DNA of 53,304 nt from a virus (Duplodnaviria; Caudoviricetes): positions 1-53,304 of the IMG/VR virus record IMGVR_UViG_3300037606_000271. One strand, given 5' to 3'. A program made the position numbers and the translations under genes. The notes below the pieces were generated by a model. It was not told where the DNA came from. It saw nothing but the letters and a program-made list of their open reading frames with translations, and searched no databases. Below, piece by piece: positions 23,837-47,100 of this stretch. Position 1 is the stretch's first letter. Each line of letters starts with the position of its first letter.

Positions 23837-23842
23837 TATATT

Positions 23843-28243: not shown

Positions 28244-31200
28244 TTATCTACTGGATAAGTTGTATAATTCCATTATGTTAGTAGCATTTCTAATACCTTT
28301 AACTATAGGAATAATATCTATTGTCTTCTTTCCTATATAATAAGACCCATCTTGATATTTTCTAAAGGGATTTCCTTCAGTAAAAAATTGAATTGGGTCA
28401 AGTACTACAGGAAAAGTAATAAACTTTTCAATAGCTGAAACCGCTGCTGCTGGAGATCTAAGAATCTCTAGTGTTTGAACTGGGTTAAAAAAGAAAGACA
28501 TTTCTGTTATATGTCTGTTAGCTTGATAAGCTGTGAAAGCTAATAGTTGATTAGCTAAGTCTTCATCATCTTCATCAACTATATTTGTCAATAACAAGTA
28601 TATAGTAAAAGCTCCTAAAACAGTTGCTAATTCTCTCCTTATTCTTAAATAGTTTTGTCTTTGTACATCATCCATTTTAGCCCACTTCTCTTTAAAAGCT
28701 CCACTTAATAGCATTTCTTTATCTTCTCTAGCTAATTGTTTAGCGTCTTGATATATCCTTAGCATAGACCTGTACATTCCTTCTTGTTTAATAGTATTGC
28801 CGTCATCATCTAATCCTTCTTGGTAGTTATATTCCAGTTTACCATATCTACGATTACCGGGAGAAATAATAAATTTTCTAAATGTTTTTAACATTCTACC
28901 CAGTGCAAAATGCTGCATTCTACTTTGATCAACTTTATTGTAAATACCAAACAATCTTTGATTTACAGAATGAATTTTTAAAGATATTGCATCTACGTCA
29001 ACAGGGGAACCATCTAATTCAGTAACGTCTTCTGATATAGAAGACGAGAAATCTTTATGGTCTATGTGATCTAGTAAAGAAACTTTTTCACCTTTATATA
29101 ATACTTTTTTGTTTGCAATGATAGTAAGAGCCATTTTATACGCTCCAAAATGTTCACCTATATTATTAAGAGCATAAGGAGAAGATAATATTCTTTTTAT
29201 AGCAACACTTTCATTAGGACTTTCTTTAATTACTTGCTGCATAAATTCATCTCTAACATTAAATAACCTACCTAAACCTGTTAATGTAGAATCAACTGAA
29301 GGATTATCAAAAGCTCTTAATGACTCCATTAAATGAGTAGTATAAAAAGAATCAGCTTTTGCAAAAGATTCTTTATCGTATATTTTAGCAGCTTTTTCTT
29401 GAGCTATTGATGAATATGCTTGCAATACGTTAGCTGGTGGAGAATATATGTTATAACCCAAACCTAGCAAAGAAGTATAAGCACCTAAAAAATCTAATAT
29501 TTTACCTGTTTTACCTTCGTTCTTTTTAAACTTACCATATATATTAGCGTCAATGTAATCTGTAATTCGCTCAGCTTGATTACCACCAATTAAACCGGGA
29601 GAATCAAGTATTCTCCTTTTGTTAATAACACCTTCCATCATAAGAATAGAAGATTCTATATTTCGCATTTCAATATAATGATTAGCCATATATCCAAATG
29701 AATTTGTTAACATATGAATATCTGTAGACATATCATTTATATTTTCAATTTCATTGATAAAGTACACAGGCAATGTTCTTGTGTTACTATCATAAACTAT
29801 CTCCTCATCGTTAAACCTAAATTTATCCATAAAGTTTTGCTGTAATCCTTTTACATTACCTTCTTTTAATAATTGAGCTAAAGATTTAGTTAATTGAGGT
29901 AACTTATAAAGATGTGCTGGATTTAAAGGTAATTTAGAAGATTTGGCTTTAATTTTTAACACTTGATCTAAGTAACTTTTTTTAGAGTCAGGAAGTTTAT
30001 CATAAGAAAGATCTTCATATAAATCTTTTCTTGGTGTAGCTAAATCCTTAGTAAAAATTAAATCACCATTATTCTTAAAACTATTATCTAATATGTAGCT
30101 ACCTACACCATAAATAACAGTATCAATCTTTTCTTGTTCTCCTAAAGATAGTTTTTTATCATAAGTTTTAAGAAATTCTCTGGTTGAATAGTTATCAATA
30201 ACATAACCTTTTGATGAAATAAATTTGTATAAAACTTCTACTAAGTCACTTTTAGAAACAGAGAATATATCTCTTACAGATTGTTCTATTTGGTTCTTAA
30301 TTACTTGATCTAAATTAGGTAATCGTTCTTGATTATTTTTAAACCAATTATCTTTATTTTCTCTGTACATTTTACTTAATTCAGGATCTTCACCTAATTG
30401 CTTTTTTCTTTCATCATAGTTTTCAGATAAACGTAAACTTACTCTAATTTCACGCATAGCTTTTTTACGAGTTATTTCATATTCTGCAAAATTAATGTTT
30501 TCAGGGTTAACAAAGTATCTGCTTATATTACCTTCAGCGTCTTTTTGAATAAAATCTAAATCATTAAAATCTTCAATTTTAGATCTTAATCTTAATAATT
30601 CTTCAGCTTCATCTTTTGATTTATTAATAACTATTTGCCTTGATCTTTTATAATAAAGATCAAATAATTTTAATACATCATCATTGAGATTTGCTAAAGA
30701 TTGAATCCAAGCTTGAATACCTGATATATTTTTAACTTCTTCTAACAACTTTTTATACTCACCTTCTTTAAAATGAGTCATTAATTTAGTAAAAGGAGAC
30801 ATTAATCTTTCAGATAATTCAATTTCTTTGTTGCGAATTAACCCTTCATATCTTGCTTTTTTACTAACAATATCAGATACTTCTGTTTTAACTCTATCAG
30901 GCATTCTACGAACAGATTTTTCACTGTTAATGTCTTCTATAAATAAATTGAATTGAGCTACTTTTTCTTTAGCTCGTCTTAAGGCATCTACAATCTCTTC
31001 TGTTTTGTTTTCAGATTTATCTAAAGTGTTTAATATGTCAAGAGCATCATCTAAAGCTAAAGAAGTACTATTAAGAGCATTAACTGTGGCAGTTTTATAA
31101 TTACCAGCTGATTGAGGTAATTCTAATTGCTCTATTTTTTTAGTTATTTCTTTCTTAATTGTCTTATTAGTTTGATTTTTCTTGGCTTCATTTAATTCTT

Positions 31201-32047
31201 TTAACAAAGAATCTACTTGGTGACTAAGATCAAAATCTTTAAACTCAGAAGACTTAATTTCATATTGTACATTGCCTTTAAAATCATCACTCAACTTTAA
31301 CTCTTTGTTTTTAATTTTATCTTTTAAATCATTAGCAAAATCTTCTATTAACTTGTTGTCAAAAAATTTCAGGGCTTTTCTAATTAATGTTCTTATAGTT
31401 CTTAATATTCTGGAAGATGTAGATTCCATATCATTATCTAATAACACATCTCTAATTAATTTATCAACAACTTCTTTTCTAGCTAACTGATCTGTGTACC
31501 CTGGAACCTTAATATATTTATTATATATTTCATTAAATTCAGGATGTTGATCTACAATAGATAATATTCTTTTGAATGTAGGATCTTCTAACATAGTAGA
31601 CGTCATCATGTGAGACATTTCTTCTAATTGAGTAGCTTTATCTCCATTATTCCAAGCTATAATTTTATTAATAGGATCTGCTACACCTTGTACATCTAAA
31701 GCATAACCATTTTGCTGTTCAAATTGTTTTGAGTAAGTTGATACAGCTCCCCTTTTAACACCCATACTACTAAGTACAGACCATAAATTATCTATTACTA
31801 AATTAGAATTATCTAATACGTTTATTTTATAATCAGGTTCGCCATTCATGTCTTTAGGTAAATCCTCATTAGAAGATAATTTGCTCCATAGTTTGATAGA
31901 TTTTTCTTCAAATGTACCTGTAATTTTACTACTAAATTCTTTATTGTTATCTATAGTAAATTTAGACTTTTCAAAAAGTAAAGATGGTGCCCCGTTGGGG
32001 GCACTCACCTCTAATTTACCATTATTGTATTTTATTTGACAGCTCAT
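28244..32047 (-). CDS. Large virion cargo/ejection protein (1267 aa) with degenerate N-terminal zincin-like domain
   Basis: APNGAPSLL motif, EEMSH in place of HExxH, C-terminal hydrophobic helices; directly downstream of the virion RNAP as in crAss-like phages. Confidence 0.8.
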   Translation of the reverse strand: MSCQIKYNNGKLEVSAPNGAPSLLFEKSKFTIDNNKEFSSKITGTFEEKSIKLWSKLSSNEDLPKDMNGEPDYKINVLDNSNLVIDNLWSVLSSMGVKRGAVSTYSKQFEQQNGYALDVQGVADPINKIIAWNNGDKATQLEEMSHMMTSTMLEDPTFKRILSIVDQHPEFNEIYNKYIKVPGYTDQLARKEVVDKLIRDVLLDNDMESTSSRILRTIRTLIRKALKFFDNKLIEDFANDLKDKIKNKELKLSDDFKGNVQYEIKSSEFKDFDLSHQVDSLLKELNEAKKNQTNKTIKKEITKKIEQLELPQSAGNYKTATVNALNSTSLALDDALDILNTLDKSENKTEEIVDALRRAKEKVAQFNLFIEDINSEKSVRRMPDRVKTEVSDIVSKKARYEGLIRNKEIELSERLMSPFTKLMTHFKEGEYKKLLEEVKNISGIQAWIQSLANLNDDVLKLFDLYYKRSRQIVINKSKDEAEELLRLRSKIEDFNDLDFIQKDAEGNISRYFVNPENINFAEYEITRKKAMREIRVSLRLSENYDERKKQLGEDPELSKMYRENKDNWFKNNQERLPNLDQVIKNQIEQSVRDIFSVSKSDLVEVLYKFISSKGYVIDNYSTREFLKTYDKKLSLGEQEKIDTVIYGVGSYILDNSFKNNGDLIFTKDLATPRKDLYEDLSYDKLPDSKKSYLDQVLKIKAKSSKLPLNPAHLYKLPQLTKSLAQLLKEGNVKGLQQNFMDKFRFNDEEIVYDSNTRTLPVYFINEIENINDMSTDIHMLTNSFGYMANHYIEMRNIESSILMMEGVINKRRILDSPGLIGGNQAERITDYIDANIYGKFKKNEGKTGKILDFLGAYTSLLGLGYNIYSPPANVLQAYSSIAQEKAAKIYDKESFAKADSFYTTHLMESLRAFDNPSVDSTLTGLGRLFNVRDEFMQQVIKESPNESVAIKRILSSPYALNNIGEHFGAYKMALTIIANKKVLYKGEKVSLLDHIDHKDFSSSISEDVTELDGSPVDVDAISLKIHSVNQRLFGIYNKVDQSRMQHFALGRMLKTFRKFIISPGNRRYGKLEYNYQEGLDDDGNTIKQEGMYRSMLRIYQDAKQLAREDKEMLLSGAFKEKWAKMDDVQRQNYLRIRRELATVLGAFTIYLLLTNIVDEDDEDLANQLLAFTAYQANRHITEMSFFFNPVQTLEILRSPAAAVSAIEKFITFPVVLDPIQFFTEGNPFRKYQDGSYYIGKKTIDIIPIVKGIRNATNIMELYNLSSR

Positions 32048-35000
32048 TAATTACATTTTTTATTATTAGGATTCTCTTTATTAACATCTTCTACTTTGAC
32101 ATCAGTAGTTTTAGCTTTCTTTTTTACTTTTAGTTTAACTCGTGTAATTATTTCTTTTTCTAAATTGAATAATTTAAAATGCTTTCCTTGAACCATGTCA
32201 GTTTTACTAGCTTCAAACCTGAAAGCTATTTCACTAAATTTAATATCATAATTAATGTCACCATTGTTCATTTTTCTCTTTACGTAAATATCTCCATTGT
32301 TAGAATCATAATAATAATCTACATAACCATCAGGACCTTCTTTAGGTAGTCTAGCTATATAACTAGCATTTGCATTATTAGCTAAATGTTGCATTAAAAA
32401 AGTACTTATCATTAATTGATTATCGTAAGAAGATTCTCCATGTTCTTCAGACAAACTTAATTTAATACTGTTACTTTCATCTGAATAATAACCTAAATCA
32501 GCAAAAGCTTGCTGAGGGATTAACTTAGTATATCCAAATGGAGAGTAACCTAATCCATCTAAGTACAAAGCGTACCTAGCTAAATCTTGTACTAATTTAG
32601 GATCTTCTAAATATAAATAACTCATCATATCTTCTTTCATGTGTTCTTCTTCCGCAATCTCATTATTGTTAGACTTATAAAACATAAATTCTTGTGTACC
32701 TTCTTTATCTTTTTGAATAATAAAATCATTTAATAATTCACTATACTCAGGATGTTTAGAAAATCTTTCAATAATACCTTCTGTAATGCTTGTTTCATCA
32801 CCTGTTCCACTTACAAAAGCATTAAAAAACGCTTTATCTTCATTATTAAGAGTAGCTACAAAAGTTTTAAAGTCGTGAAGTATAATTTCTATTTCTCTTC
32901 CAGTAAGTTGATTGCCAGTAACCTTAGATTTAGCATTAGATATATGGTATATCATATTAAAGTAAACTCCTCTATTGTATGCAGGTATGCCTAAATTTTC
33001 CATGACTACCATCATGACGTCTTTTATTTTATTACCATCTTTAACTACTGATTTAGTAGAACGACTAAGGTGATCTTTAATAACTTCTCTAGCTGTATTA
33101 GCTTTTGTATTGTCATCAAGATCAATTAATAACTTAGTTAAATAATAATAAGGTTTAGTATCATCTAATAATAATTCTACAGCTCCTTCAAAAGCGTTTG
33201 GATCATTAATAGCGTCAATAATTTTAAGAATCATGGATATAGATTCTCCGTCAGAAGAACCAATACCATCTTCTGTGGATTTAGTAGCAACAGTTAATTT
33301 TCGCATATATTCACCATATTCTATATATCTACTAAAAGTAGTCATTACATCAAAAGCTTCTTTTTTATTATTCATAATCCATTCTTTAGGATCAGATATA
33401 CCATCTTGAGAAGATTTTAATAAATCACCCTTTTCAAAGTTAACTACAGATTTAACTGCTATTCTCTTTTTTTCTTTATCTGTAGCATCTCTTGGATCTC
33501 CATTATCATCTGTCATAATAAGATCCATCATGTCACCAAAAGCTTTGTCATTAGACATTCTTGTACCTCCATCAAATTTAAATCTTTTTGAATAGTAACG
33601 TAATGCTGGGTGGTTAATAAAATACATTGCAGTATTAAAATCTACACCAGCTGACAACATCGCAATTAATACATTAACAGTAGAAAAGTTAAGATTTAAT
33701 TTACCTGCGTGAGGATTTTTGGTGTTGTCTACAATAGCAGCTAACCAAAGAGATATATTTTGAGATCTAAATCTATAATTAAGCTCATCTAATATAATAC
33801 CTCGATTTGTAAAATCATTATATAAACCACTTTTATTTTCTTTTCTACCTTCCATCAAATTAAACTTAAAACCTACTTCATACGTTTCTGGTGTACCATC
33901 TTCTTTTAAAATAGCATTACCTTCTTCATCTTTAGATGGTTGAGAAGCAATTTTAAGTGTTTTGGCTTGTTGAAAAATACTAATAGTACTGTTAGCATTA
34001 GCTAATGGACCTACTAAAGATGTACCATCAAGAGCATTACTTCTTGATTCAACACTTCTTGAAGGCATACCCATCGTACCAATATTATCGTCAATGCCTA
34101 ATTTAATTTCTAAATCATTAAATATTCTATCAAAAATAGAAGATGGATTTAGTGTTTCAAATGCAGCATCAGAAGATGACATTAAAGCCCTGTAAGCATC
34201 AATTAACTGATTCTGTCTACCTACTTTACTATCTCCTCTAGGAACATGAAACGGCTCATCTTTGAGAACTTCTGTATAAGCTGTCATAATATTTTGAGTA
34301 GCAAGCTGTTCTCTTTTAGTTAAATCTTTAGATGCATCTTCTTGATATGTAGTGTTTAATTCGTAAATATATTTTAATAAAGGGTAATATCCCTTATTAG
34401 AATTTTTAGGTGCTAACATATCTAATTGAAACACATACATAGGGTTATCTCGAATCAATTCTTCTAATGTCATAAATCCTCTAACATCCCCAGCTTTCTT
34501 AGCGTTTTCTTTTATTTTATCAATAACTTTATCCATCATTTTAGGATCATCGTAGCCACGAGAAACAAATGAATAAAAGAAACCATACATTTTATCAATG
34601 TCAAAATCTAGTCCAGCTATGTCTGTAATCTCAGTAGGTAAGTAAACGGCAGAACCTATAGACGTAGGGATAAATCCTATAATCTTAATTGGTGCTGTAG
34701 AATACTTAGCTTCGTTTGGCGTTCTCCATATTAAACCTTTAAATACATCTTCTAGTTCTGGATTCTTTTTTATTAAATCTTCAATAGCTTTTCTATCAAG
34801 AGGTACATTAGGTTTAACATACTTGTATAATCTAGAATCATGAATAGGCATTAAAGCTTCTATGTAATCTATATTTTCTAATTTATTACCTTTACTATCT
34901 TCTTTAAACACAATCTTAGGTCTGGTATCTTCTGTAAATCCAGCAGATGATGCATTAACTAAACCTACACCTTGAAGTTTTTTAGGATTAGTAACTTGCT

Positions 35001-38000
35001 TACTGTAAATTGAATTAATAATTTGCTTAATCTTATGTGAATAAGCTGGAAAATCAAGAGGTGCTAAAGTTCTTAATTCATTATTTTCATCAGTAATAAT
35101 TTGAAGAGCTTCTAAGTAATTATTAGATAATCCTCTTTTAGAAACTTCTGCTTTTATTGTAGCTATAATACCTTTAAAATCTTTTACTTGATTAGTAACT
35201 TCAGCATAAGCTTCAATAATTTCTTGAATTTCTAATCTATTAATTTTTTCTAATAATTTAGCTCCAGTTAAAGTTTGAGAGCCTTGTATTTTAAGATTAC
35301 CTTTTTTATCTAATGAAGTGTATTTGGCTATTGTGTAAGATGCTTCAGGGTTTACATTAGCTGCCATATTCTTTCCTGCTTGTCTTGACAAAGACTTTTT
35401 ATTATCAAGAAAACCAGAAGGTACGTCATTTTGCTTACCGTAATCTTCATTTTTTACTGTTAATGCTGAAGGATTATATCTAGCAAATTGAGTTGGTTTT
35501 TTATCTTCATAAGTAAACTCTTTATTTAAGCCTTTAACAGAATCCCTCATACTTACAGAGATACCTTTTAACATAGTCAGTCTAGTTAAAGGATTAATAG
35601 CTCCATCAACTACTTCTTTAGCGTCATAGGATAGCCCTACAGGGATAATTCCAAGTTTGGTAGGTCTAATACCATATTGGTTAAATAATAGCATAGAATA
35701 GATGTTAAGCTGGTTCTCGTGCTTTTTTCTATTACTTAATTCTCCTTGTTTATAAGCAGTATCATATTTAAGCTTTTTAGTACCTGAATGAACAGCTACA
35801 AACCTTCCATCTACAATCTCATTATCATTGTTAACTTTCATTGATTTAAGATCATAAATACTAAAATTACCTTCTTTATCGTAGGTCAATAAATCAACTG
35901 TACCAGCAATACCCATTTTATCATTATGTAATAAAATTCCATTAGCTACTACTGTTTCTCCATTAGCTTCTAACTTAGCTTTTAATTCTTTTAAAGATTC
36001 TAAAAAAGATTTTACTAAAGATCTATTTGCTAAATTATAACTATTTAAATCTTTTAAATCATCACTAAAAAAATCTCTTACTAAGTTGTCTAAAGAAGTA
36101 CCTAATTTAGACGAAGACCTGAGATTAGTTTTAGTTCTGGCTAAAGACTCTAAATAACTATTTACTTTATCCACATTTTTAATTTTATAATTAGAAATAC
36201 TTTTAAAGCTGTTGTTGAAATAATCATCTAATAACCTAGTTAATTCATTAATATCTTCATTAGAAGATTTATAATCATTAGCTGCTTTTTGCGCAGGAGA
36301 CAATTGAAAACTGGAAGTTGCTCTACCATATAATTTACCTTTAGATTCAACATCATATGTATTGTTGTTTCCTGGGTCAGGTGTAGCTTCAGAAACGTCT
36401 TGAATTATATTAATTACAGAAGAAGGATTGTTAAACTTTCTACTAATAGTATTCAAATCTTTAGCTTGTAAAAACGAATCTGTGAGTACTTGTAAAACTT
36501 CTTTATCTGATAATAATTCAAAAATAAAATTAACAAATTTATTCCACCAATTAAGAGCTTCTCCTTTTTGAACTACTACTTGTTCTCCAATAGCTTGTAC
36601 AAGAGCTTCTTCACTACCCCAACGTTTAAGTCCTTCTTGTACAATAGGAGTATTTCTGAACATTGCAATGTAGTGATGAGCATACTCATGTGGTAAAGTA
36701 TCTTGTTTTTGATTTACAGCGTCAATTAATACTTTTTTAGCATCAATTATAGCTTGACCTACAATTTTACCACTTTCATTTTGATTAAAAACATTTTGCT
36801 GATCAGATTCAGGCTTTTGATTAGATTTTTGAATATCCTCAAAATTAAAATGTCGTAAACCTACGTTTTGAGAAAACTTATCATTATTAGTATTAAATGG
36901 GATGTAATTAGCAAAATCTCTAAGATCTTTTGCTCTACCCATTTTTAATTTAGCTTTAAAAATACTAATCCAATCTTGAAAACCATCATTATTTATAACA
37001 CCTAGTCGATTGTCTTTAGTTAAAAATAAATCAATGTCATAACCCCCTTCAATGCTACCAGTCCAAGTGAATGTTTCATTTTTAGTTCCTCCAAAACTTC
37101 GTACTTTTTTTAAGCTAGGATATTTCTTTTTAATCGCTTTAAACCATTCTGAATTATAAATTAAATTATCACTTATTCCTGTATATTTTTTATATATACC
37201 TGAAACAATCTGATCTCTCAAGTCTGGTACATAAGAAAACTCTTTTTCAGCAGCGCTTATTTCAGCATTTCTATTCTGCTGAATCAACGATAAATCAGCT
37301 TGTATTAAACTATAAGGGACAGTAAAATCTAAATCATGTAAAGTTTCTTTTTCTGATCTGTATATAGTACCTTGTTTACGCAAAGACAAACTACCTGTCA
37401 ATAAAATACCTAATTCTTGAAAATCCTTAACTATAGAATCAGCTTTAGGGTCTTCATTAATAGTTTGTTGATATTCTGTAAGTTGCTGATCACTGCTTAA
37501 AACTGTACCAAATTTCTTAAACTCACTATTAATTACATCTGAAGCAATATCATCTAATAAATCATTTACCTCAGTACTGTTTAATTTATTAGAACCTAGC
37601 AATTCTTTTATAAATCTTTTTAACCTATTAAGCTGATATTTAATTTGCTTTTCTAATTTAGAATTACCTTGTATAGACCAATATTCTGCCGATCTTCCTA
37701 ACTCTACTTTAGAAGGATTCTCAAAGTTATTTTCAATAGCAGCAGATATATAATCTACAACTATTAATTCTTTAATTTTATAATCATTTAAATCTGGACT
37801 TCTTTTCTTATACCTATCATATGCTTTAGCATATCCTTGTATGTTTTCAATTGAACTAACAAGATCAGTTCTTATTTTATTCTTTTTCCCTAGCATAGAA
37901 TACGCTACATAAGCTACTTCTTTAGTTAGTAATCTTAAAGGGTCGCTACTAGATTTTAATAATATAGTTTTATAAATTAAATCAGTAGTAGCTAATGCGT

Positions 38001-41000
38001 TAAATCCTGTTAAAGTTCTTAACTCATCAACTGTTTTAACATTAAAATTTAATTTTGTTAAAAAATCATTAAGCTTATCAAGTCTATTAATTACTTGATT
38101 AAATACGTCAGCATCATAAGAAGCTAAAATCTCGTCAACATATTCCAGGTTAATGTCAGGAAAAAGTTCTTTAAGTTTATTTCTTAATTTATTATCTAAA
38201 TCATAATCAAATTTAGAGCTATTAAATTTTAAACTAGTAGTAACAATATTTTGATCTAAATCTAATATACCACCTTGCTCAGCTTTAAGAGCTTCATTAG
38301 AAGAAAAAGTATCTATATACTTTCTATCATGATTATAAGATCTTTCTTTTTCAAAATTAGGAATAGTTTTTACAGAGTTTTCAGTAAACTCATACCCCAT
38401 TCTTTCTAAAAATAATCTGTATAAAGGATTGTAATAAGTATTAGGTTCTCCGTTTTTAAGAAATCTCATTCCATGCATTGGGTGCATTACCAACTCAGAG
38501 TCTTTTTTTTGAAAAGGCTTAACTTGAGTACCTTCTATCATAGAAAAATGAAATCCTTTTAAAGGATTAAAAAAAGATTCTTTTTGATTAGGAGTTAACA
38601 TTTGAAAATTAAACTCACCCTGTAACATTTTTAAATAAACAAATTCTTTAGTGTCATTCCATTCACCAAGACCTATTAAAATCTGTTTATACCTAAATGG
38701 ATCAATGTAAGATTGACCATCTGTTAAAGAAGAAGATTTAAAGATTTCTGTAATACCATCATACCTACCATCAATGCCAGCATAATGTTCTTCTAACTTT
38801 CTAATATGTTCTTGAAACCCTTCAGTAATCCCTTCAATGTCTTTAAAGCCTTGAATTACATAATTCTCTGATACAGTAGTTACATCACCAGAATAAGGAG
38901 AAGTATAATATGCTCCTACAAACAAAGGGGTTGTTGGTGACCATATTTGTTTAGTACGTTTATCGTAATTAGCTAATGTAGCTAATACATCTTTAGCTTG
39001 AATTTCTCTCTCTGATAAATTAGAAGTATCTCCTTTAAAAGCTTTTTCATAAAAGTTTGGGTGACCATTAAATGTAATAGCAGCAGATGGATATAGCACA
39101 GCATAGTTGTAAACAAAATCTCTAATTTCTTTTCTACCATAATTTTTTAGTGCTTCTCCTTCTTCTGTAGGTACAACAGTCCGCTTTAATACACCAGTCT
39201 TTTTTCTAAGATATTCATGAACTTTAAACACTCCTTCATCAATAAGGTATTGCTCATAATCCTTAGCTCTTTTAACCATTATATCTTTAATGAGCACTTT
39301 TAAATTAGTGTCACTCAAGTTTTCACCTATGTAAGCTTGTAGTTCAGGAAATATATGCAAATTAGAACCTAAAGATCCGTTATTTATTACACTTAATTCG
39401 TTTTTAGCAAGTTTTAACAAATCATCAATTATAGATTCATTTGGTGTGTACAATAAGGTACCATCTTCTAATCTATCTGTTTGACCATTCTTAATAAACT
39501 TTCTGTTGTATCTGATAGCTGTCATAGAGCCACTATCAGAGTGAATAGGTAATTCTATAGCTCTACGCTCATTAAACATAATTAGCTGGTTTATAACTAA
39601 TTGCTGCTTGTTCATATCAGAATAAGCAATTAGTTTTCTTTTTCCAGGAAGTCTAATACCATTAACTACTAGATAAGCAGCTTGCTTATTTGCTATAGCT
39701 TCTATTGTTTTGTTTTCATCATATAAAGGATCTTCTTTGTATATGTTTTCACCATTTTGTATTCTACTAATTTGTCTAGTAGTAAAATTAGAATTGTTAA
39801 ATTGATATACTTTTTCTCCTTTAGAATTTAAATGTGAGTTGTTCATTATACTTAATGAATTTTCACTTAACATTTGAGTGTAAAGTAAAAACGCAGAAGA
39901 AGGTTTACCATTAACTCCTAATAAATCACCATTAAAATTACCATCTTCGTCTTTTGATTTCAAAGTATTGTAAAGACCAAATACTTTTTCTTTAAAATCT
40001 TCTGTTGAAGGGTCACTACCTAAAGTGTAAGTAAACAATCCAAACTCTTCTAACGCTTCAGCTAATGCTTCACCATCTTTATCAAAAGCTTTATCTAACT
40101 TACCAATTAAAGAGTTTCTTTGTGCTCCATCGTATGTGCCATTAGCTATTAGTTTACCTTCTCTAGCTGTTCTTAACACATCAGAATAAATAGATTTATT
40201 ATTATTTTCATAATTAGATGGATTCATTTCACGAATCATCTCTCCATTTTTATTTGTAATTACTGTGTCAAAATAATCATATTTATAATTACTTGCAATT
40301 TTAGCCCATATAAGAGTTTGAAACTTTTGAGCTTCATTACTAGTCATATCTTCTGGAAACAATTCTGCAATTAAAGGATCTTTAGTTCTTAACTCATTTA
40401 TTTTTCTCATCATATTTCTAGATGTTCCACTATTACCTAATAGTTGAATCAGTCTTTTATACGCATAAGAAAATGTATGTACTTCTGGTAACCCCAGAAA
40501 ACCTTTAGCATCCACTAAGTTCCCTTTACTATCAAACTTTTTACGTTTAATGTTGTTTAAAGCAGATTTAAGTTCTTCAGATAAAGATTCGTATTGAGAA
40601 ATAGTGTTAATATCTTTCTGCCATTTTTCTACAGTAGTTTCTGAAGTCTGATCTGTAGTTAGTTCTAAATTAACGTAATACCCTCTTTGCTTAAAATCTT
40701 TAAGTATTTCAATAACTAAAGAATTTTGAAACACATCATTGTTTTCAAAAGATGCTGTGTAACGCAAAGCTTTAATAACATGAGCTAATGTTTGTTGACT
40801 ATCTGGCTCAGAAAGTTTTTGTATTTCTGTACCAAGCATACCAATTACAGTATTAGGATTTTCTTTACTTGGTATAGCAGTTAACGCATTCTTTGTTATA
40901 TCCGGGTTAAAAAACATTTCAGCAAACAACTCTTTCTTTTTTGTAGAACTAGTTAAACCCCGTTTAGAAACTTCTTGTTCAAATAACTGAGTAGCAAATT

Positions 41001-41154
41001 GCACTAAAGTTACTTTCATTTTATGAATTTGATTAGGACGTAACTTGGCGTTATTAGTTAACACATCCATTGTTAACTGTTTAATCTTTCTTCTAAGTTC
41101 TACTCTGTTAATAGCTTTAATTATTCCGTTTTTTGTTTTTACAAAACAGTACAT
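32047..41154 (-). CDS. Virion-packaged single-chain two-barrel RNA polymerase (phi14:2 gp66-like) with a large multi-domain insertion
   Basis: Catalytic GLDFDIDK (DFDID at 34594-34608) preceded by WRTPNEAKYS; TDGQSY, PLKG and VDNTKNP motifs. Confidence 0.9.
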   Translation of the reverse strand: MYCFVKTKNGIIKAINRVELRRKIKQLTMDVLTNNAKLRPNQIHKMKVTLVQFATQLFEQEVSKRGLTSSTKKKELFAEMFFNPDITKNALTAIPSKENPNTVIGMLGTEIQKLSEPDSQQTLAHVIKALRYTASFENNDVFQNSLVIEILKDFKQRGYYVNLELTTDQTSETTVEKWQKDINTISQYESLSEELKSALNNIKRKKFDSKGNLVDAKGFLGLPEVHTFSYAYKRLIQLLGNSGTSRNMMRKINELRTKDPLIAELFPEDMTSNEAQKFQTLIWAKIASNYKYDYFDTVITNKNGEMIREMNPSNYENNNKSIYSDVLRTAREGKLIANGTYDGAQRNSLIGKLDKAFDKDGEALAEALEEFGLFTYTLGSDPSTEDFKEKVFGLYNTLKSKDEDGNFNGDLLGVNGKPSSAFLLYTQMLSENSLSIMNNSHLNSKGEKVYQFNNSNFTTRQISRIQNGENIYKEDPLYDENKTIEAIANKQAAYLVVNGIRLPGKRKLIAYSDMNKQQLVINQLIMFNERRAIELPIHSDSGSMTAIRYNRKFIKNGQTDRLEDGTLLYTPNESIIDDLLKLAKNELSVINNGSLGSNLHIFPELQAYIGENLSDTNLKVLIKDIMVKRAKDYEQYLIDEGVFKVHEYLRKKTGVLKRTVVPTEEGEALKNYGRKEIRDFVYNYAVLYPSAAITFNGHPNFYEKAFKGDTSNLSEREIQAKDVLATLANYDKRTKQIWSPTTPLFVGAYYTSPYSGDVTTVSENYVIQGFKDIEGITEGFQEHIRKLEEHYAGIDGRYDGITEIFKSSSLTDGQSYIDPFRYKQILIGLGEWNDTKEFVYLKMLQGEFNFQMLTPNQKESFFNPLKGFHFSMIEGTQVKPFQKKDSELVMHPMHGMRFLKNGEPNTYYNPLYRLFLERMGYEFTENSVKTIPNFEKERSYNHDRKYIDTFSSNEALKAEQGGILDLDQNIVTTSLKFNSSKFDYDLDNKLRNKLKELFPDINLEYVDEILASYDADVFNQVINRLDKLNDFLTKLNFNVKTVDELRTLTGFNALATTDLIYKTILLKSSSDPLRLLTKEVAYVAYSMLGKKNKIRTDLVSSIENIQGYAKAYDRYKKRSPDLNDYKIKELIVVDYISAAIENNFENPSKVELGRSAEYWSIQGNSKLEKQIKYQLNRLKRFIKELLGSNKLNSTEVNDLLDDIASDVINSEFKKFGTVLSSDQQLTEYQQTINEDPKADSIVKDFQELGILLTGSLSLRKQGTIYRSEKETLHDLDFTVPYSLIQADLSLIQQNRNAEISAAEKEFSYVPDLRDQIVSGIYKKYTGISDNLIYNSEWFKAIKKKYPSLKKVRSFGGTKNETFTWTGSIEGGYDIDLFLTKDNRLGVINNDGFQDWISIFKAKLKMGRAKDLRDFANYIPFNTNNDKFSQNVGLRHFNFEDIQKSNQKPESDQQNVFNQNESGKIVGQAIIDAKKVLIDAVNQKQDTLPHEYAHHYIAMFRNTPIVQEGLKRWGSEEALVQAIGEQVVVQKGEALNWWNKFVNFIFELLSDKEVLQVLTDSFLQAKDLNTISRKFNNPSSVINIIQDVSEATPDPGNNNTYDVESKGKLYGRATSSFQLSPAQKAANDYKSSNEDINELTRLLDDYFNNSFKSISNYKIKNVDKVNSYLESLARTKTNLRSSSKLGTSLDNLVRDFFSDDLKDLNSYNLANRSLVKSFLESLKELKAKLEANGETVVANGILLHNDKMGIAGTVDLLTYDKEGNFSIYDLKSMKVNNDNEIVDGRFVAVHSGTKKLKYDTAYKQGELSNRKKHENQLNIYSMLLFNQYGIRPTKLGIIPVGLSYDAKEVVDGAINPLTRLTMLKGISVSMRDSVKGLNKEFTYEDKKPTQFARYNPSALTVKNEDYGKQNDVPSGFLDNKKSLSRQAGKNMAANVNPEASYTIAKYTSLDKKGNLKIQGSQTLTGAKLLEKINRLEIQEIIEAYAEVTNQVKDFKGIIATIKAEVSKRGLSNNYLEALQIITDENNELRTLAPLDFPAYSHKIKQIINSIYSKQVTNPKKLQGVGLVNASSAGFTEDTRPKIVFKEDSKGNKLENIDYIEALMPIHDSRLYKYVKPNVPLDRKAIEDLIKKNPELEDVFKGLIWRTPNEAKYSTAPIKIIGFIPTSIGSAVYLPTEITDIAGLDFDIDKMYGFFYSFVSRGYDDPKMMDKVIDKIKENAKKAGDVRGFMTLEELIRDNPMYVFQLDMLAPKNSNKGYYPLLKYIYELNTTYQEDASKDLTKREQLATQNIMTAYTEVLKDEPFHVPRGDSKVGRQNQLIDAYRALMSSSDAAFETLNPSSIFDRIFNDLEIKLGIDDNIGTMGMPSRSVESRSNALDGTSLVGPLANANSTISIFQQAKTLKIASQPSKDEEGNAILKEDGTPETYEVGFKFNLMEGRKENKSGLYNDFTNRGIILDELNYRFRSQNISLWLAAIVDNTKNPHAGKLNLNFSTVNVLIAMLSAGVDFNTAMYFINHPALRYYSKRFKFDGGTRMSNDKAFGDMMDLIMTDDNGDPRDATDKEKKRIAVKSVVNFEKGDLLKSSQDGISDPKEWIMNNKKEAFDVMTTFSRYIEYGEYMRKLTVATKSTEDGIGSSDGESISMILKIIDAINDPNAFEGAVELLLDDTKPYYYLTKLLIDLDDNTKANTAREVIKDHLSRSTKSVVKDGNKIKDVMMVVMENLGIPAYNRGVYFNMIYHISNAKSKVTGNQLTGREIEIILHDFKTFVATLNNEDKAFFNAFVSGTGDETSITEGIIERFSKHPEYSELLNDFIIQKDKEGTQEFMFYKSNNNEIAEEEHMKEDMMSYLYLEDPKLVQDLARYALYLDGLGYSPFGYTKLIPQQAFADLGYYSDESNSIKLSLSEEHGESSYDNQLMISTFLMQHLANNANASYIARLPKEGPDGYVDYYYDSNNGDIYVKRKMNNGDINYDIKFSEIAFRFEASKTDMVQGKHFKLFNLEKEIITRVKLKVKKKAKTTDVKVEDVNKENPNNKKCN

Positions 41155-41168
41155 ATTATATTATTTAT

Positions 41169-44100
41169 TTATGCGCAAGAAGGGTTAGTAATAGTTATAC
41201 CTAAACTAGCTAAATAAGCATCTCCAATTGGGTCATCCCCATCTAAAACATTAGTGTCAGATAATGAATTTACTAATGCTTGCCCACTGTCAGTTGTAGG
41301 TAAACCCAATTCTTTTAATTTTCCTAAAATTCTTGTGGGATCATTATTTAATTCTTCAATAAGCTCTTCGTTAGTTTTATTTAATCCATTTTTACGTAAT
41401 CTGTTACCATATCTACGTGCAAATTCTTTTATATTTTTACTATTATTTTTTTCATTATTAACTATTTCTAAAGTTTTACTAGGAGAAGTTTCTTTTTCAC
41501 TTACTTCTGTAGGAATAATGTCTACTGGTAAAAAAGGATTACCTTTATTTGTTTCTACTATAAGATCTTCTACATCTGTAAATATTTCTGTTATATCTGT
41601 AGGTACTTCTGATACAGAACTTTTTACATTTTGCTGCAATATAGCTTCTATTTCTTTAGCAACTTCTTCTCTCATTGCTATTTCTTCTAGAGTTAACACT
41701 TCCCCATTAATAATTTTATTAGCAATATTTTTAATCATTGACGAACTAACAACTCCAGTATCTACAAATACATCAAAATCTGATTTGGTTTTAGGTGTTA
41801 ATTTATTAATAGAATCATTTATAACAACCATAGAAAAGTCGTCTTCTTTAATATTATAAAAAATATCTTTAATTAACTGAGGATTAGTACTCATAACTTT
41901 TATCAATCTTCTTGAATCAGTTGTAAGACCTTTAAGTAGTACATGAGCCATTATTTTTTCATCTACTTTTAATTGAGTTGCTAACTCTTTTAAAGAATAA
42001 CTTACTACATCATCTAAAGATGTTGAAGTTAATAAATCATTAAATGCTATAAGTAATTCTTTTCCTCCTCTACGAGATAACACAATTCCATCTCCAAGAC
42101 CGTCTGATCCAATAATAATATGTTCACCTTTTTTTACTTTAATTATACCTACATGTAAATCATTAGCATTGTTTGCTACAAATCCTTTACTTCCTATAGC
42201 AGCAGGAGTACTGTTGTCTATATCTTCACCTACAATAACAATTAATTTACCATTTTTATCAACTTTATAAATAGGTGAATCACCTATTTGAAAATAAGAA
42301 TAAGTGTTATTACCTGTTTTCTTTACAAGAGATAAAGTAGTTCCTGCTGTTTCTGGATGAGATTTTAAAATTTCTTCTACAAGACTTTTGATTTCAGCTT
42401 TAGAAAATTTATCTAATTTAGATACTTTTTCAAGTATTTCATCTACTAAAGGTTTTGAATCTTTTAAAGAACCTAAACCATCAGCAACCATATACCATCC
42501 GTTATTAACATACACTCCATCTTGCCCTTTACTTCTACTATTATCATTTAAAGCTACATAACCATCTTCTTCTAAATTACCAGTTAAACTGTTATCAAAA
42601 GTTGAGACTTTATTAGGGGCTTTATTTGCAGAAGTATTTTGATTAGCTTTTTTATTAACTTTTTCTGAGGTAAATAACCTAGTAGGTGCCATTAATACTT
42701 TAGGTAATAAATTGCTTTCTATTCTATCTTTAGCTGTTTCATAAGTATCTTCTAAAGATACTTGAACAGGTCTTTCAAGAATATTATGATCATTCATAAA
42801 TTGACTTACGTAATGCATATAATAATTAAATTTATTAGAAGAAGGTACAGTTTTAATGATACCTGTGGGTTTTAAATCCATATCTAATACTTCAACTCTC
42901 ATATTCTCATTGTTTACACTTAATACTTTAAATATTTCTCCACTTTCTTGAGCATCATATAATTTATCTAAAGACTCTTGTTCATTTTTTTTATCAGATT
43001 CGTAGTATTCGTCAATAACAGAAGACATAGTAACACTATCAACAATAATATCTCCTTCATTAGGAGCGACTTTTATTTTTTTAGTATAAAGAAGTTTAAA
43101 TATATTACTAATTGACGGTTGAGATATTTTTGTATTTTCATCTACTTCTTTACTCCATTTCACAATGGCTCTAATATCATCTAAAGATATATCTTCTTTA
43201 AGTAATTCATCAACTAATGCTTGATATAATTCTGGATGATCTTTAAATTTAATTGCATCAGCTATAAAATAAGTACCTGATTCTTCACCATCAAGAAATA
43301 CTATTATGTTAGAAGTCTGATCATTAAGCTTTTCACCAGTATATATTTTATCTCCTATTTTAATAGTATATGGATCAACAACGCCGTTACCGTCACCAGA
43401 TGCATTATTAATAACTTTAATAAAAGGTATAACACCTGTGGGGATTACTTCTTCTAACCGTCTTTTAGTTGATGTTTTTAAGAAATCCCCTTTTTTAGCA
43501 TGTCTTACTTCTATCTTAGCTGTATGAGTTTTATCTTTAACAGCGTTGTTTAAAAATCGTTCTCTAAATTCTTTAAGCGGTCCTTTATCTACACCTCCTC
43601 CTTGAATTATACCAATAGTAATTCCGTTATGCTGAACTTTTAATACAGGTAAATTGTAATTAGTAATCTCATCACCTTCAACGTATTTTTTTAAATTATC
43701 TTCTTCTATAATTACTGTAAGTTCATCTTCTTTACTTAAATCTAATGTTTGGTAATACTCTAAGTCAATACCAAACTCTTCAGCAAATTTAGTATTTAGT
43801 AAAGGTTTGTCATTTTTATCTAACAACATTACTGTATATTTCCCTGCTGAGTTATTAGATGTAATAGCAAAGTTATAATCTTTAGTTAATTCTTCATACG
43901 TAACTGTTTGGTTAGAATTTTCATCGTACTTAGGAAATTTAAAAGAACCCCCTACAATAATTTTGTCTCCATTAGCTAAAATCTCTATTTCAGCATTACT
44001 TACTGTAACTATTCTGTAAGGCAAAGTATGTATTTCTAAATGATGTATTGTAGAATTAGGGTCAGTAGATTTAGTGTTATTTACTTTAGATTTTGCTTTA

Positions 44101-47100
44101 GTTGGTGTTAACATACTAGTAGATACGTTATTGATCTGCTCGCCTGTTATAAGCTCATGTAAGACACTTACAGCCTCACCATAAGCATTAGACTGTTTTC
44201 CAGTTAAAAGCTCTATAATGCGCTTTAAAATGTCTTTTAGAATAGATCCTAAAGAGTAGTTTGTGTTTGTCGCTACATTAGACAACGCATAAACAAAACC
44301 TCCATTACCAAACTCCATTAGCATTTCTCTTACATTACTTATTCCAAATTCTTTTAGTAATTCATCAGGTATTAAATTAAATATATCAATGAGTCTTTGG
44401 TCAGAAACTAAATCAGGATTATTCATTATCTCATTTCTCATTAATGTTTTAATCATGGTATAGGCTAAATACTTTTTTCTAAATGATTCTATTGTTCTAG
44501 CATTACCTATAAGATTAGTTTGAATACCTTCTTTAAATATTTTATCAGCTTTTTCTTTAAATCTTTTAGAATTTAAATAAATAGTGTTAGTTTTTTTATC
44601 ATATACACCATCTTTACCCGCACCTGTAAATACAATTTCCATATCCATACCTAACTTTTCTATTACGTCAATTAACAATTCTCTTAAAGGATCTTGTTTC
44701 ATTGACCGTAAAAAACTTACAACAGACTCATGTGCTATTAACTGTCCTTGCAGCTTATTAAATAAACGCAATGCTTTAATACTTTGCTCACCATTAAGTT
44801 GACTTCTATTAAATATTTCATCCAAGATTAATTTATAATTACCATCATTATCTTTTGCTTCATCATGCAAAGCTTCTAACTCATCTAAATTAAGCTTACT
44901 AAGGTGATGCTCTTCATTAGGGTTTTTTGACGTAGGTGAAGTATTGGTTCCTTCCAAATTTTTAATATAATCTTTTATAACTGTAGAAGAAGTGTATTTA
45001 GAATTGCGTAAAGTATTGCCAATTTTATCACTGCTTTTAGAATTTTTTAGTTCTAATGTAGTAATTACTTTACCTTTTTCTTTTTGAGGTTTACCATCTA
45101 CCCCAATTAAAGGTACTTCAACTAGCTCATCACCTAACTGTTTAGCTATAATATTTAACAGCTCTCTACTTTTTGGATCGGTTTTTTCTTTTAATCTATC
45201 AAAAGCTTTTACTAAAACATACTTTTCTACTTCTTCTTTAGAAACACCTGCGGCGACAGCTATTTCATCTGCCCCTTCAAATATCTCAAAGTCTCCATTA
45301 TTACTATTTTCAGTAAAAGGGTTTACTTCATAATCAACTTCAGGAAGATCTGGACCCAAATCTAAATCTTCCATTTCCAATATAGCGTTTTCCTGTTGAG
45401 CTTTAAATTGATTAAACAAAGCTTGACCAATTTGGGCTACTCCAGGAATACCATCAATAGCATCTACTTGATCTATTTCAAATGTTTTTGCCCCTTGTGC
45501 TTTTTCTAAAGATGTTAACTTTTGTTGATAAGATTTTACTATAGCTTCTTTAGTTTCTTTTTGTTGAGGAGTTTTATCTGGAAGATTTAACGCTTGAGTT
45601 AAACTTAATTTAGTCATTATGTATTCAGTATCTTTTCCAAATACCGGGTCAGCTTTTAATGCTTTTTGAGCAACTGCTACTATTTCTCTAGCTTCTTCAA
45701 ACTCTAATTCTGTAGCTTTTTTTACTACTTTCTTTATGGTAGTAGCTGGGTCATCTCCTTCATTTTTTGAATCGTCTGCTGTTTTACCTAATTGTTGATC
45801 TTGGAGATCAGAAGAGTTTTTAGCAGCTTCAATAGCTTTACTATCAGTGGCTAGTAGTTCAGCTTTATCTTTTTTATCAGGATCTTTTTTTAGCATAGAA
45901 GCTATGTACCCAGGAGAAGCAAAAGCTAATCCACCAATACTACCTTGAACAACTGATTCCCAAAATTCTTTATCTCCAGTAGCGTTTAAAAAGGATTGTA
46001 TTAAACTCTCATCTCTACTTGCTTGCGCGTTTTTAGAAAATGTATATTGTAAACCTTCTTCTAAACCTTCTGAAGCTGAGTCAAAAGCAATTAATTGTAA
46101 AGATTCTTTAATTTTACTATTCATTTTAGTTAGGGAAGGTCCAGCACCTTTAAACATAGACAATAACTTAGTGTATTGTAACATGTCTATAGCTGCTAAT
46201 GACATACCATATCTATAGTTTTTACTAGCTGCTTTAGAAGCAATTTCTTTATGTTCTTCTTCTGATCTTTCCGGGTGAAGTTTCCTACTTCTAGCATATA
46301 CTATATCATAAGTGTCTTTAGATTCACCTAATGTTTCTGCGTTTCTAGATATTACTGATGCAAAAGCTGCTTGAGTAAAACGATCTGATGTACCTAAAGT
46401 TGCGTCAACTTTTATATAATTATCTACTGCACCTCTAATAGATTCTCTTCTTTCCTGAAGTAATTGATTATAATCAACAGAAGCTTTTTCACTATCAGCT
46501 TTTTCTAATAAAGCTAATTCGTCATCAATTTGATTTCGAGTTGGGCCTTTCTTTTTCTTATTGCTTTTTATTATTTTATATAAATCCTCATAAGCTTCTT
46601 TTTGAGCTTTTTGATAAACTTCTTTAAGTTCTTTAGGTGTAGCTGCTTTTTGACCGGATCTTTTTAACTGCTCTTCAAAAACATCAGCTGCTTCTTTACC
46701 AATAACACCAGACTCTCTCCTAGCCAGGAATAAAGAATCTCTTTGATCGGGAGTATCAATAATAGCATTAGCTACTTTGTCCATTAAAGTAGCTCCTTTT
46801 TCTCCATGTTTTGCGCGAGCATTAGCCACTGCTTGTTTAGTTAAACTTTCAGTTTTTTCTCTAGCTATTTTTTCTAATCCATCATCACTTAATTTTATAG
46901 CTTGATTAAATAAACCATCGGAAACACCTTCTCCTAATTTATCTGTAAATCCTTTTGTTGATCTAAGTTTGATTAAATCATCTACATTAGCTTCAAAAAC
47001 ATCTCCTAATTGTTTTCTCAAATTTCTTTTTAAAGAACCTTGTACAACCCCTTTAGCTAATGCTCCAGGAACTTTAGCTATTAAACCAGCACCTAATGAT

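Follow-up and report, generated by a model that had tools for sequence, protein, structure and literature searches.

The window analysed here is a single 53.3-kb contig (53,304 nucleotides, G+C content about 29%; IMG/VR virus record IMGVR_UViG_3300037606_000271), and its minus strand encodes a predicted crAss-like single-chain RNA polymerase (RNAP) of the gp66/gp50 family, P0001 (3035 amino acids (aa); 32047..41154). The chain of the polymerase is interrupted by an insertion whose boundaries are set by comparison with relatives, and which contains a metalloprotease of the zincin type split around other domains, the folds of further enzymes and intact catalytic motifs; the content of this one site varies between related polymerases. 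The polymerase has probably taken a nested cassette of ~930 aa, similar in kind to the polyvalent proteins of phages, into the segment that precedes its Connector, and would deliver the enzymes of the cassette. In the human gut the Crassvirales are the dominant phages, and for their large ejected proteins few roles other than early transcription are known.

The insertion site in the polymerase

P0001 is homologous to gp66 of Cellulophaga phage phi14:2 and gp50 of crAss001 on either side of the insert. As in the gp66 family of Crassvirales virion polymerases, the homology runs in one chain across both barrel regions, the catalytic motif is DFDID (aa 2183-2187, window 34594-34608) and the gene stands in a block of large cargo genes. 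DFDxD with Ile or Val at position 4 is the form of the motif in crAss-like virion RNAPs (preprint 10.1101/2020.03.07.982082). BLASTP aligns aa 801-892 with gp66 951-1035 and aa 1894-2519 with gp66 1088-1655, while the matches to gp50 are aa 727-896 with 993-1158 and aa 1866-2507 with 1202-1785; about 50 residues in the known polymerases correspond to about 1000 in P0001. On local MAFFT alignment of 15 RNAP segments, the sequence ..ALKAEQGGILDLDQ directly adjoins LTVKNEDYGKQ in gp66, gp50 and eight RNAPs from viral contigs. The insert, as delimited by this junction alignment and by the spacing of the flanks, comprises aa ~969-1897 (~930 aa; 35464..38250; all features of P0001 are on the minus strand), nearly identical to the limits of 35460-38270 at which an earlier note, made from the sequence of the window, had placed a large insertion. 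It is preceded by a conserved block on the side of the first barrel (aa 727-896, 38467..38976; gp50 993-1158 and gp66 951-1035), which is 59% identical to the related polymerase P0191. The conserved block that follows it (aa 1895-2260, 34375..35472) contains the EDYG motif, the Connector and DFDID, and corresponds to gp66 from residue 1088 and gp50 from residue 1232 onward.

The segments NEALKAEQGG (aa 953-962, window 38269-38298) and EDYGKQNDVP (aa 1903-1912, 35419-35448) flank the insertion, and the statement in the earlier note that the two are adjacent in relatives is borne out both by the 15-segment alignment and by their spacing. Among the RNAP relatives in viral contigs, 95 were confirmed by tblastn and 80 loci were kept; 78 open reading frames (ORFs) match the downstream block and 45 match both. 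Measured between the equivalents of aa 892 and 1903, the flanks are separated by a median of 61 aa in these 45 polymerases compared with 1011 in P0001. The spacing is ≤100 aa in 38 of them, 101-200 in six and 310 in one that is anchored loosely, while strictly anchored spacings (n = 23) range from 54 to 183. No module of the insert is found between the flank blocks of any of the 45 polymerases, and aa ~969-1897 have no counterpart in these, gp66 or gp50. The Connector of gp66, which lies between the two barrels, spans residues 1095-1238 (10.1101/2020.03.07.982082). Homology resumes at gp66 1088, which puts the insertion where the first-barrel region ends, immediately ahead of the Connector. 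A permissive loop is suggested here by six relatives with 103-183 aa at this position.

RNAP genes that are naturally split close to this site (locus L029 and similar) were considered as examples of a tolerated break and rejected, as the ORFs there are fragmented throughout. The RNAP region of L029 comprises many short ORFs under translation table 11, and only a short ORF (543-742 aa) covers the catalytic block in L031, L032, L037, L044 and L045. Reassignment of a stop codon is suspected in all of these loci.

Units of the insert

A search with aa 940-1920 returned 237 proteins, and local BLAST sorts the matches into three units. The first (aa 1026-1440) is about 50% identical to the N-terminal parts of many proteins of 1900-2500 aa. 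The second (aa 1450-1570, containing HEYAH) is 60-77% identical to >80 otherwise unrelated giant proteins, several with the Pfam domains ART-PolyVal, ParB, AAA or SprT, and the third (aa 1675-1850) corresponds to the nuclease. Exhaustive phmmer against 1.84 billion representatives yields 610 proteins with E<=1e-3, including 452 with E<=1e-10 and 189 with E<=1e-30. Among them only P0002, an identical protein recorded from a second contig, spans the whole insert. In order along the chain are found the start of a zincin, a degenerate zincin, a nucleotidyltransferase (NTase), the rest of the first zincin and a nuclease, exactly the five parts that the earlier note had read there.

Structural comparisons are based on two models. 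Model 1 (AlphaFold2, aa 950-1610, 44-row alignment) has a mean predicted local distance difference test (pLDDT) value of 82.9, and model 2 (aa 1440-1910, 43 rows) one of 69.2; folds were searched with VIA-align against 48,161 chains. Foldseek with model 1 gave no match at E<=1e-3. Nothing significant was found by phmmer and profile search against PDB sequences, where pagR reached E 0.41 and the NTase TM1012 only E 0.9 in the profile search, aligned on the GS..DxD motif. There was no usable match to the inactive-zincin/NTase unit in the ESM Atlas, and a Pfam scan of the whole of P0001 gave no family above cut-off, the Pfam polyvalent families included. Single-protein patterns found no close relatives of the insert in viral contigs, and tblastn with the N-terminal 960 aa of P0001 gave no match in the phage collection.

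The zincin is split

The zincin core (aa 1449-1575, 36430..36810) is recognized by sequence identity, motifs and the secondary structure of the model. It contains HEYAH at aa 1489-1493 with E1515/E1516 downstream, i.e. the HExxH and distal glutamate ligand of a gluzincin. H1489 is present in 28 of 31 alignment rows and replaced by Glu in the other three; E1490 and H1493 are invariant (31/31), and E1515 and E1516 are found in 28 and 29 rows, respectively. Apart from HEYAH, none of the window's three large cargo proteins contains a canonical HExxH. In model 1 the core runs strand-strand-strand-helix (E505-509, E515-520, E525-528 and H537-549 in model numbering). The SprT-like family PF10263 matches below threshold (E 0.15 for P0001), as it does 17 of the 44 members of the alignment (best E 0.012). 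Giant proteins with nothing else in common (P0035, P0037, P0038, P0127 and many others) have 60-77% identity in the 120-aa core. Phage proteins of this kind evolve fast, and judged from these identities the conservation of the core is unusually strong for one of their domains.

Many proteins have, immediately ahead of the core, an element termed pre-A with the pattern F-[DN]-x-x-L-x-x-K-L-x-x-x-L-x-x-L-Y-P-x-I-x-L-x-Y. Pre-A of P0001 (aa 979-1007, KFDYDLDNKLRNKLKELFPDINLEY.., 38134..38220) is located about 450 residues upstream of the core. A hidden Markov model (HMM) of 29 positions, built from 15 contiguous examples, was run on 171 proteins; these were chosen by similarity to the insert, and the E-values refer to that small set. 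It matches aa 981-1007 of P0001, and occurs once each in 100 of the 132 core-bearing proteins, upstream of the core in all 100 and downstream in none; there are no matches in the 39 core-less proteins (105,916 aa) or in reversed sequences. The two parts are contiguous in 40 proteins (4-27 aa apart) and separated by 177-753 aa in 60. By this distribution the zincin of the insert is split between pre-A and core, and splitting appears to be a habit of the family.

The tetrapeptide VFNQ is present at both junctions of the nested unit (aa 1016-1019 and 1454-1457; window about 38098-38109 and 36784-36795), which share the 9-nt sequence TTTAATCAA; in contiguous zincins of the family such a strand occurs only once. 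The repetition may record the origin of the insertion or may be due to chance, the latter being possible in an AT-rich genome.

The inactive zincin paralogue and the nucleotidyltransferase

Following pre-A, the chain forms a second zincin-like domain together with a helical region (aa 1013-1216, 37507..38118). The zincin core is aligned with it by hhalign (probability 94.3%, E 1.1e-7) such that HEYAH faces KEVAY, which replaces HExxH here. K1078 is found in 16 of 22 rows, and E1079 and Y1082 in 19 each. The fold of model residues 65-267 (aa 1014-1216) matches PprI (8sln, Z 7.0), the ArdC metalloprotease domain (6sna, Z 6.3), the lethal factor of anthrax (Z 5.8) and PPEP-3 (Z 5.6), which are modest values. 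From its sequence this domain is an inactive paralogue of the zincin core.

The chain continues as an NTase of the Pol-beta type (aa 1229-1445, 36820..37470), for which most 10-residue blocks of model 1 have pLDDT >85. The characteristic elements of the superfamily (G[GS], [DE]x[DE] and a third acidic residue on the common fold) are represented by G1254 S1255, D1274 and D1276, and D1375; all are present in 25 of 25 rows except D1274 (24/25). Model residues 280-487 (aa 1229-1436) match MenT1 (8an4) with Z 9.3 and an rmsd (root-mean-square deviation) of 3.2 Å over 137 residues, followed by TglT (6j7n, Z 8.9), LnuA (8.8), ANT(2'') (8.7), a Helicobacter pylori NTase (7.6) and TM1012 (7.3). The best value, that of the MenT family, is tied with ANT and Lnu and accompanied by no sequence match. 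In the model the NTase is thus nearest in fold to enzymes that nucleotidylate tRNA ends or small molecules. The unit of inactive zincin and NTase also occurs in apparently standalone proteins of 482-530 aa (P0122-P0126; 44-50% identity over ~415 aa), one of which, P0124, has 11 member sequences.

The linker and the nuclease

From the end of the zincin core the chain passes into a poorly modelled linker (aa 1576-1678, 36121..36429; 10-residue block means of pLDDT mostly 29-62 in model 2). It then forms a PD-(D/E)XK nuclease of the RecB/MGME1/RecE/Cas4 type (aa 1679-1884, 35503..36120), well modelled over model residues 241-400 with block pLDDT mostly 87-97. Its fold matches MGME1 (Z 11.0), AdnAB (10.5), AddAB (10.3), RecE (9.8) and Cas4 (9.6), 14 chains in total having Z>=8, and the best match with Foldseek is 3l0a (E 2.3e-4). 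Amongst profiles it matches the exonuclease PHROG 298 (E 2.4e-6), PDDEXK_1 below threshold, and DruK and Cas4 of PADLOC. The motifs D, (D/E)xK and QxxxY of RecB-like nucleases are all found: D1754 in 36 of 36 rows, D1768 in 33, K1770 in 35, Q1815 in 33 and Y1819 in 30. There is no cysteine in the sequence of aa 1646-1900, hence nothing corresponding to the four cysteines of Cas4 and AddB, and the nuclease is therefore not of the iron-sulfur kind. By its modelled fold it is nearest to enzymes that process DNA ends. A word-based search found no standalone homologues of the nuclease part (173-553 aa).

Other contents of the site in related polymerases

Four more RNAPs of the same clade, retrieved by the exhaustive search, carry different sets of domains at the site between the first double-psi beta-barrel and the Connector, which bears out the suggestion of the earlier note that the polymerase is a carrier of an exchangeable payload. 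P0191 (2383 aa), the closest to P0001 with 40-59% identity in four RNAP blocks, has the nuclease only (aa 1040-1207) and no HExxH anywhere. The more distant P0188 (2616 aa) has a C-terminal remnant of the zincin core lacking HExxH (1198-1279) followed by the nuclease (1351-1518); the remnant suggests loss from a fuller ancestral cassette. In P0032 (2533 aa, 40% identity around the site) pre-A (939-965) is followed by a region weakly matching the inactive zincin, by the NTase (1126-1329) and by the HEYAH core, and there is no nuclease. P0187 (2041 aa, ending inside the RNAP part) is also more distant, and contains pre-A (936-962), an ART-PolyVal domain (1051-1182; Pfam E 4e-8, above cut-off) and the HEYAH core (1629-1757), so that the split zincin encloses an ADP-ribosyltransferase where P0001 has the NTase. 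P0036 and P0057 likewise have ART-PolyVal between pre-A and core; most other stretches nested at this position have no Pfam match (30 proteins sampled of the 60). Of all the comparisons, this substitution favours an exchangeable payload most strongly. The payload is not arbitrary, however: in many relatives gp65/gp49-like cargo proteins begin with the same set of inactive zincin and NTase, zincin and nuclease.

The cassette in other proteins of relatives

The same units in the same order are found at the N-terminus of P0014, P0021, P0028, P0019, P0027, P0031, P0011, P0013 and others. The C-terminal halves of these proteins match phi14:2 gp65, crAss001 gp49 and the 1267-aa protein of the window. 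In the giant polyproteins P0022, P0023 and P0010, units of the cassette come before or after the RNAP part. The crAss001 protein gp47 carries a homologous nuclease (28% identity, E 9e-18), and in viral loci nuclease homologues are located at the RNAP N-terminus, some 1000 aa beyond the catalytic barrel, or in an adjacent ORF. In many loci the ORF that follows the RNAP contains, at aa ~150-350, divergent zincin-like domains detected with a profile of the zincin core; HEFGH or HEFSH is present in some of them, and others lack HExxH.

The gp65-like protein of the window itself has a zincin-like domain lacking HExxH (aa 112-246, 31310-31714, minus strand), identified by profile alignment, in which ..LEEMSHMM.. 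faces the KExAY helix of the paralogue; crAss001 gp49 has EEFAH there. P0012, P0019 and P0031 have EEAAH or EEATH in a further alignment. Taken together, these sequences point to a recurrent Glu-for-His variant of the zincin, which may or may not bind metal.

Proposed function of the cassette

In the reading that we favour, the surface-linking segment before the Connector, between the two double-psi beta-barrels, took in the cassette of ~930 aa. A gluzincin-type metalloprotease is interrupted between its N-terminal helix/strand element and its beta-sheet by the inactive zincin and the MenT/ANT-like NTase, and followed, after the poorly modelled linker of ~100 aa, by the RecB/MGME1-like nuclease. 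P0001 would be packaged and ejected like its orthologues, such that the built-in enzymes are co-delivered with the first DNA in fixed amounts, one copy per polymerase, before phage genes are expressed. The three enzymes would then act on host or phage macromolecules early in infection. Packaging and ejection are known for the orthologues of phi14:2 and crAss001 only (10.1101/2020.03.07.982082; PMC10172136), from which those of P0001 may be presumed; virions of crAss001 contain gp47, gp49 and gp50, and partial unfolding during ejection has been argued (Bayfield et al. 2023, PMC10172136). The location of the cassette varies among cargo proteins and the same site holds different sets of domains, which argues that its location is free rather than functional for transcription, and that delivery matters rather than coupling.

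A number of observations weigh against this reading. Packaging, enzymatic activity, targets and any processing of P0001 are all inferred. The 80 viral-contig loci contain no copy of the pre-A/core subfamily (and phmmer with the zincin core gave no match among their ORFs), so its link to crAss-like phages is drawn from metagenome proteins. The zincin core is not matched above the Pfam cut-off. The folds assigned by the earlier note to the NTase, inactive zincin and nuclease were found by segment modelling, but that of the zincin core is missing from the fold-search lists, which were filled by the other domains; this is an absence of a test rather than of the fold. The packing of pre-A on the core is suggested by their co-occurrence in sequence. 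The strand part of pre-A is modelled as helix in the 661-residue model 1 (block pLDDT 60-79), and model 2, from which pre-A is absent, gives poor values for the core's sheet (block pLDDT 33-46), which could mean a dependence on pre-A or merely a thinner alignment. Prediction of a complex of pre-A (model residues 22-66) with the core (496-661) gave a score of 0.01 in a run without controls, which carries no weight in either direction. Lastly, the codon and amino-acid usage distance of the insert is 0.133, compared with a mean of 0.107 and a maximum of 0.126 for chunks of the same size from the rest, a slight rise such as differing amino-acid content would give.

The zincin might have a more particular role, as the earlier note had considered. 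After ejection HEYAH could cut at or near the borders of the insert and in the linker, freeing the NTase unit and the nuclease and leaving the polymerase as two associated halves with one barrel each, like beta and beta' of cellular RNAPs. The HExxH and Glu are intact and strongly conserved, and the ~100-aa linker and the ends of the insert are poorly modelled. For metallopeptidases of this kind, autoproteolytic release is among the roles that have been proposed (Iyer et al. 2017, PMC5512222); proteolysis has been raised in connection with RNAP activation and polyproteins, and the two barrels are separate subunits in cellular RNAPs (Drobysheva preprint, 10.1101/2020.03.07.982082). Yet no cleavage site or fragment is known, and the N4 virion RNAP, which has a domain of this sort, enters the particle without being processed (Iyer et al. 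2017, PMC5512222). P0191 carries its nuclease, and P0188 its zincin remnant, without HExxH, so a payload at this site needs no protease in cis. Moreover the core is 60-77% identical across unrelated proteins, which a conserved external target fits at least as well as the cutting of variable flanks. Release by the zincin is thus possible, though we find it doubtful.

It is less likely still that the insert remains attached and acts together with transcription, in which case the nuclease and NTase would work in cis on the template or nascent RNA and the zincin on host proteins. Their roles might be end processing, tailing or modification of early transcripts, or the removal of host DNA close to the incoming genome. 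The tether to the polymerase at a fixed 1:1 ratio would suit this, as would the fold neighbours, which include RNA-directed NTases (MenT toxins, terminal uridylyltransferases and poly(A) polymerase) and nucleases of DNA ends (RecB, AddAB, MGME1 and RecE); nucleases of this family stand beside the RNAP block in many crAss-like phages (Yutin 2021, PMC7886860). In most relatives, however, these domains belong to another polypeptide, or are remote from the barrels of a giant polyprotein, and an ADP-ribosyltransferase replaces the NTase in P0187; both findings speak against a role in transcription bound to this site. Also improbable, to about the same degree, is that the zincin is a dedicated carrier domain with a conserved 'port' between its helix/strand element and its sheet, into which effectors are plugged, the RNAP loop being a second port. 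The plugged effectors would be the NTase, the ADP-ribosyltransferase and modules of 450-550 aa, each masked until the protease folds or cuts itself, in the manner of a zymogen-like switch for ejected proteins. If this were true there would be three levels of nesting (effector, protease and polymerase), with release of the effector timed to arrival in the cell.

That the insert is an intein, a mobile-element insertion, an assembly chimera or a decaying passenger is hardly credible and already largely refuted: some crAss-like phages are rich in introns and inteins (Yutin 2021, PMC7886860), homing endonuclease genes are present elsewhere in the window and P0188 indicates that parts of such cassettes do decay, but the frame is open for 3035 codons with three sets of catalytic motifs intact and conserved, the G+C content (0.278; 0.143 at third codon positions) is like that of the flanks, no convincing direct or inverted repeats flank the insert, no Hint or homing-endonuclease family is reported in P0001 by family searches, an identical protein is on another contig, and inserts occupy this site in four related RNAPs as well. 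The insert is real, and it is old.

Genes around the polymerase

The replication block of the window is on the plus strand, and the block of very large genes lies next to the structural genes on the minus strand. Three large minus-strand ORFs follow one another in the order of transcription, of 2150 aa (41169..47621), 3035 aa (P0001) and 1267 aa (28244..32047), which is the order g067-g066-g065 of phi14:2. The 1267-aa product matches phi14:2 gp65 and crAss001 gp49 and is a cargo protein of that kind lacking the cassette. The 2150-aa protein, a large upstream cargo protein, gives no BLAST match to gp67 at E 1e-3 and therefore corresponds to it by gene order only. It contains a PP2C-type phosphatase domain (aa 1706-1850, window 42072-42506, minus strand; PF13672, E 1.3e-6, 28.5 bits for a cut-off of 24), which would be another enzyme travelling in the virion. 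An ORF in the same gene block (51231-53066, minus strand) matches the muzzle protein of crassviruses (PF25731, E 2e-18).

On the plus strand, a 373-aa ORF in the region 5438-8829 has a match to a DNA polymerase profile that is confined to the profile's first half (phrog_1252, positions 51-404 of 663), and is followed by two ORFs for GIY-YIG homing endonucleases (6569-7519 and 8110-8829); the polymerase gene looks as if it has been broken up by mobile endonucleases or introns. Genes like rIIA and rIIB are located at 21572-25078 on the same strand (phrog_612, E 1.6e-64; phrog_609, E 1.1e-26).

Comparison with known systems

An insertion of ~930 residues appears to be tolerated at one defined site of the polymerase core, and this site, together with a second one inside the zinc protease, would provide slots for swappable enzymes. 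If P0001 is ejected like its orthologues, a MenT/ANT-like NTase and a RecB-like nuclease would be among the first wave of proteins entering the cell. The domains are expressible and their motifs intact, by which the self-processing of ejected polyvalent proteins and their targets become addressable. The permissive site could also serve for tagging or loading virion RNAPs.

P0001 resembles phi14:2 gp66 and crAss001 gp50 in its homology on both sides of the insert, in DFDID with Ile at position 4 and in the gp65/gp49-like gene downstream, and differs from them by the ~930 residues added between its first barrel and its Connector. The HExxH zincin of phi14:2 is in gp65, and in crAss001 the nuclease and an HExxH are in gp47. 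Zincin and PD-(D/E)XK domains are known from the transcription block of crAss-like phages (10.1101/2020.03.07.982082; PMC7886860). The earlier note had taken zincin insertions in crAss-like RNAPs to be already described, which was not confirmed; in the available text, the Drobysheva preprint (10.1101/2020.03.07.982082) places the zincin in gp65 and in polyproteins, the three proteins being fused in some phages, and considers that proteolysis may activate the RNAP. A close likeness to the insert is that of the N-terminal cassettes of metagenome gp65/gp49-like proteins (P0014, P0021, P0028, P0019 and others), which have the same modules in the same order at 28-50% identity. There the cassette belongs to the protein encoded after the RNAP, whereas P0001 has it within the RNAP itself, and the window's gp65-like protein is shorter accordingly (1267 aa, compared with about 2000-2600 aa in relatives with the cassette).

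The NTase shares with MenT/TglT and ANT/Lnu a minimal Pol-beta fold and GS...DxD...D (Z 8.7-9.3, rmsd 3.2-3.8 Å, 128-143 residues aligned), with only 10-12% identity and a long helical insertion (model residues 332-395); it is fused to an inactive zincin and has no antitoxin context. The nuclease shares the fold and the motifs D, DxK and QxxxY with the RecB family (MGME1, AdnAB/AddAB, RecE and Cas4), and differs in being embedded in an RNAP and in lacking the iron-sulfur cluster cysteines of Cas4 and AddB.

Polyvalent proteins with a metallopeptidase hub are known, and include the N4-type virion RNAP as a carrier (Iyer et al. 2017, PMC5512222). Like these, the insert joins unrelated enzymatic domains in one chain that would be delivered by the virion, with a zincin-like hub and ART, NTase or nuclease partners (PMC5512222), and its homologues carry ART-PolyVal, ParB and AAA domains. 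In the available text of PMC5512222, Pol-beta NTases are found only in proteins of conjugative elements, and inserts only between the two C-terminal helices of the peptidase. An insertion inside the core of a two-barrel RNAP, whole enzymes nested between the N-terminal element and the sheet of a peptidase, and the exchange of NTase for ART in one frame were not found in the parts of the literature searched, and figures or supplements might show them. The carrier here is a two-barrel polymerase of crAss type with the domains inserted inside it and not appended. What appears to be new, by comparison of the sequences, is the frequent splitting of this zincin family and the different sets of enzymes held at the same site of the polymerase.

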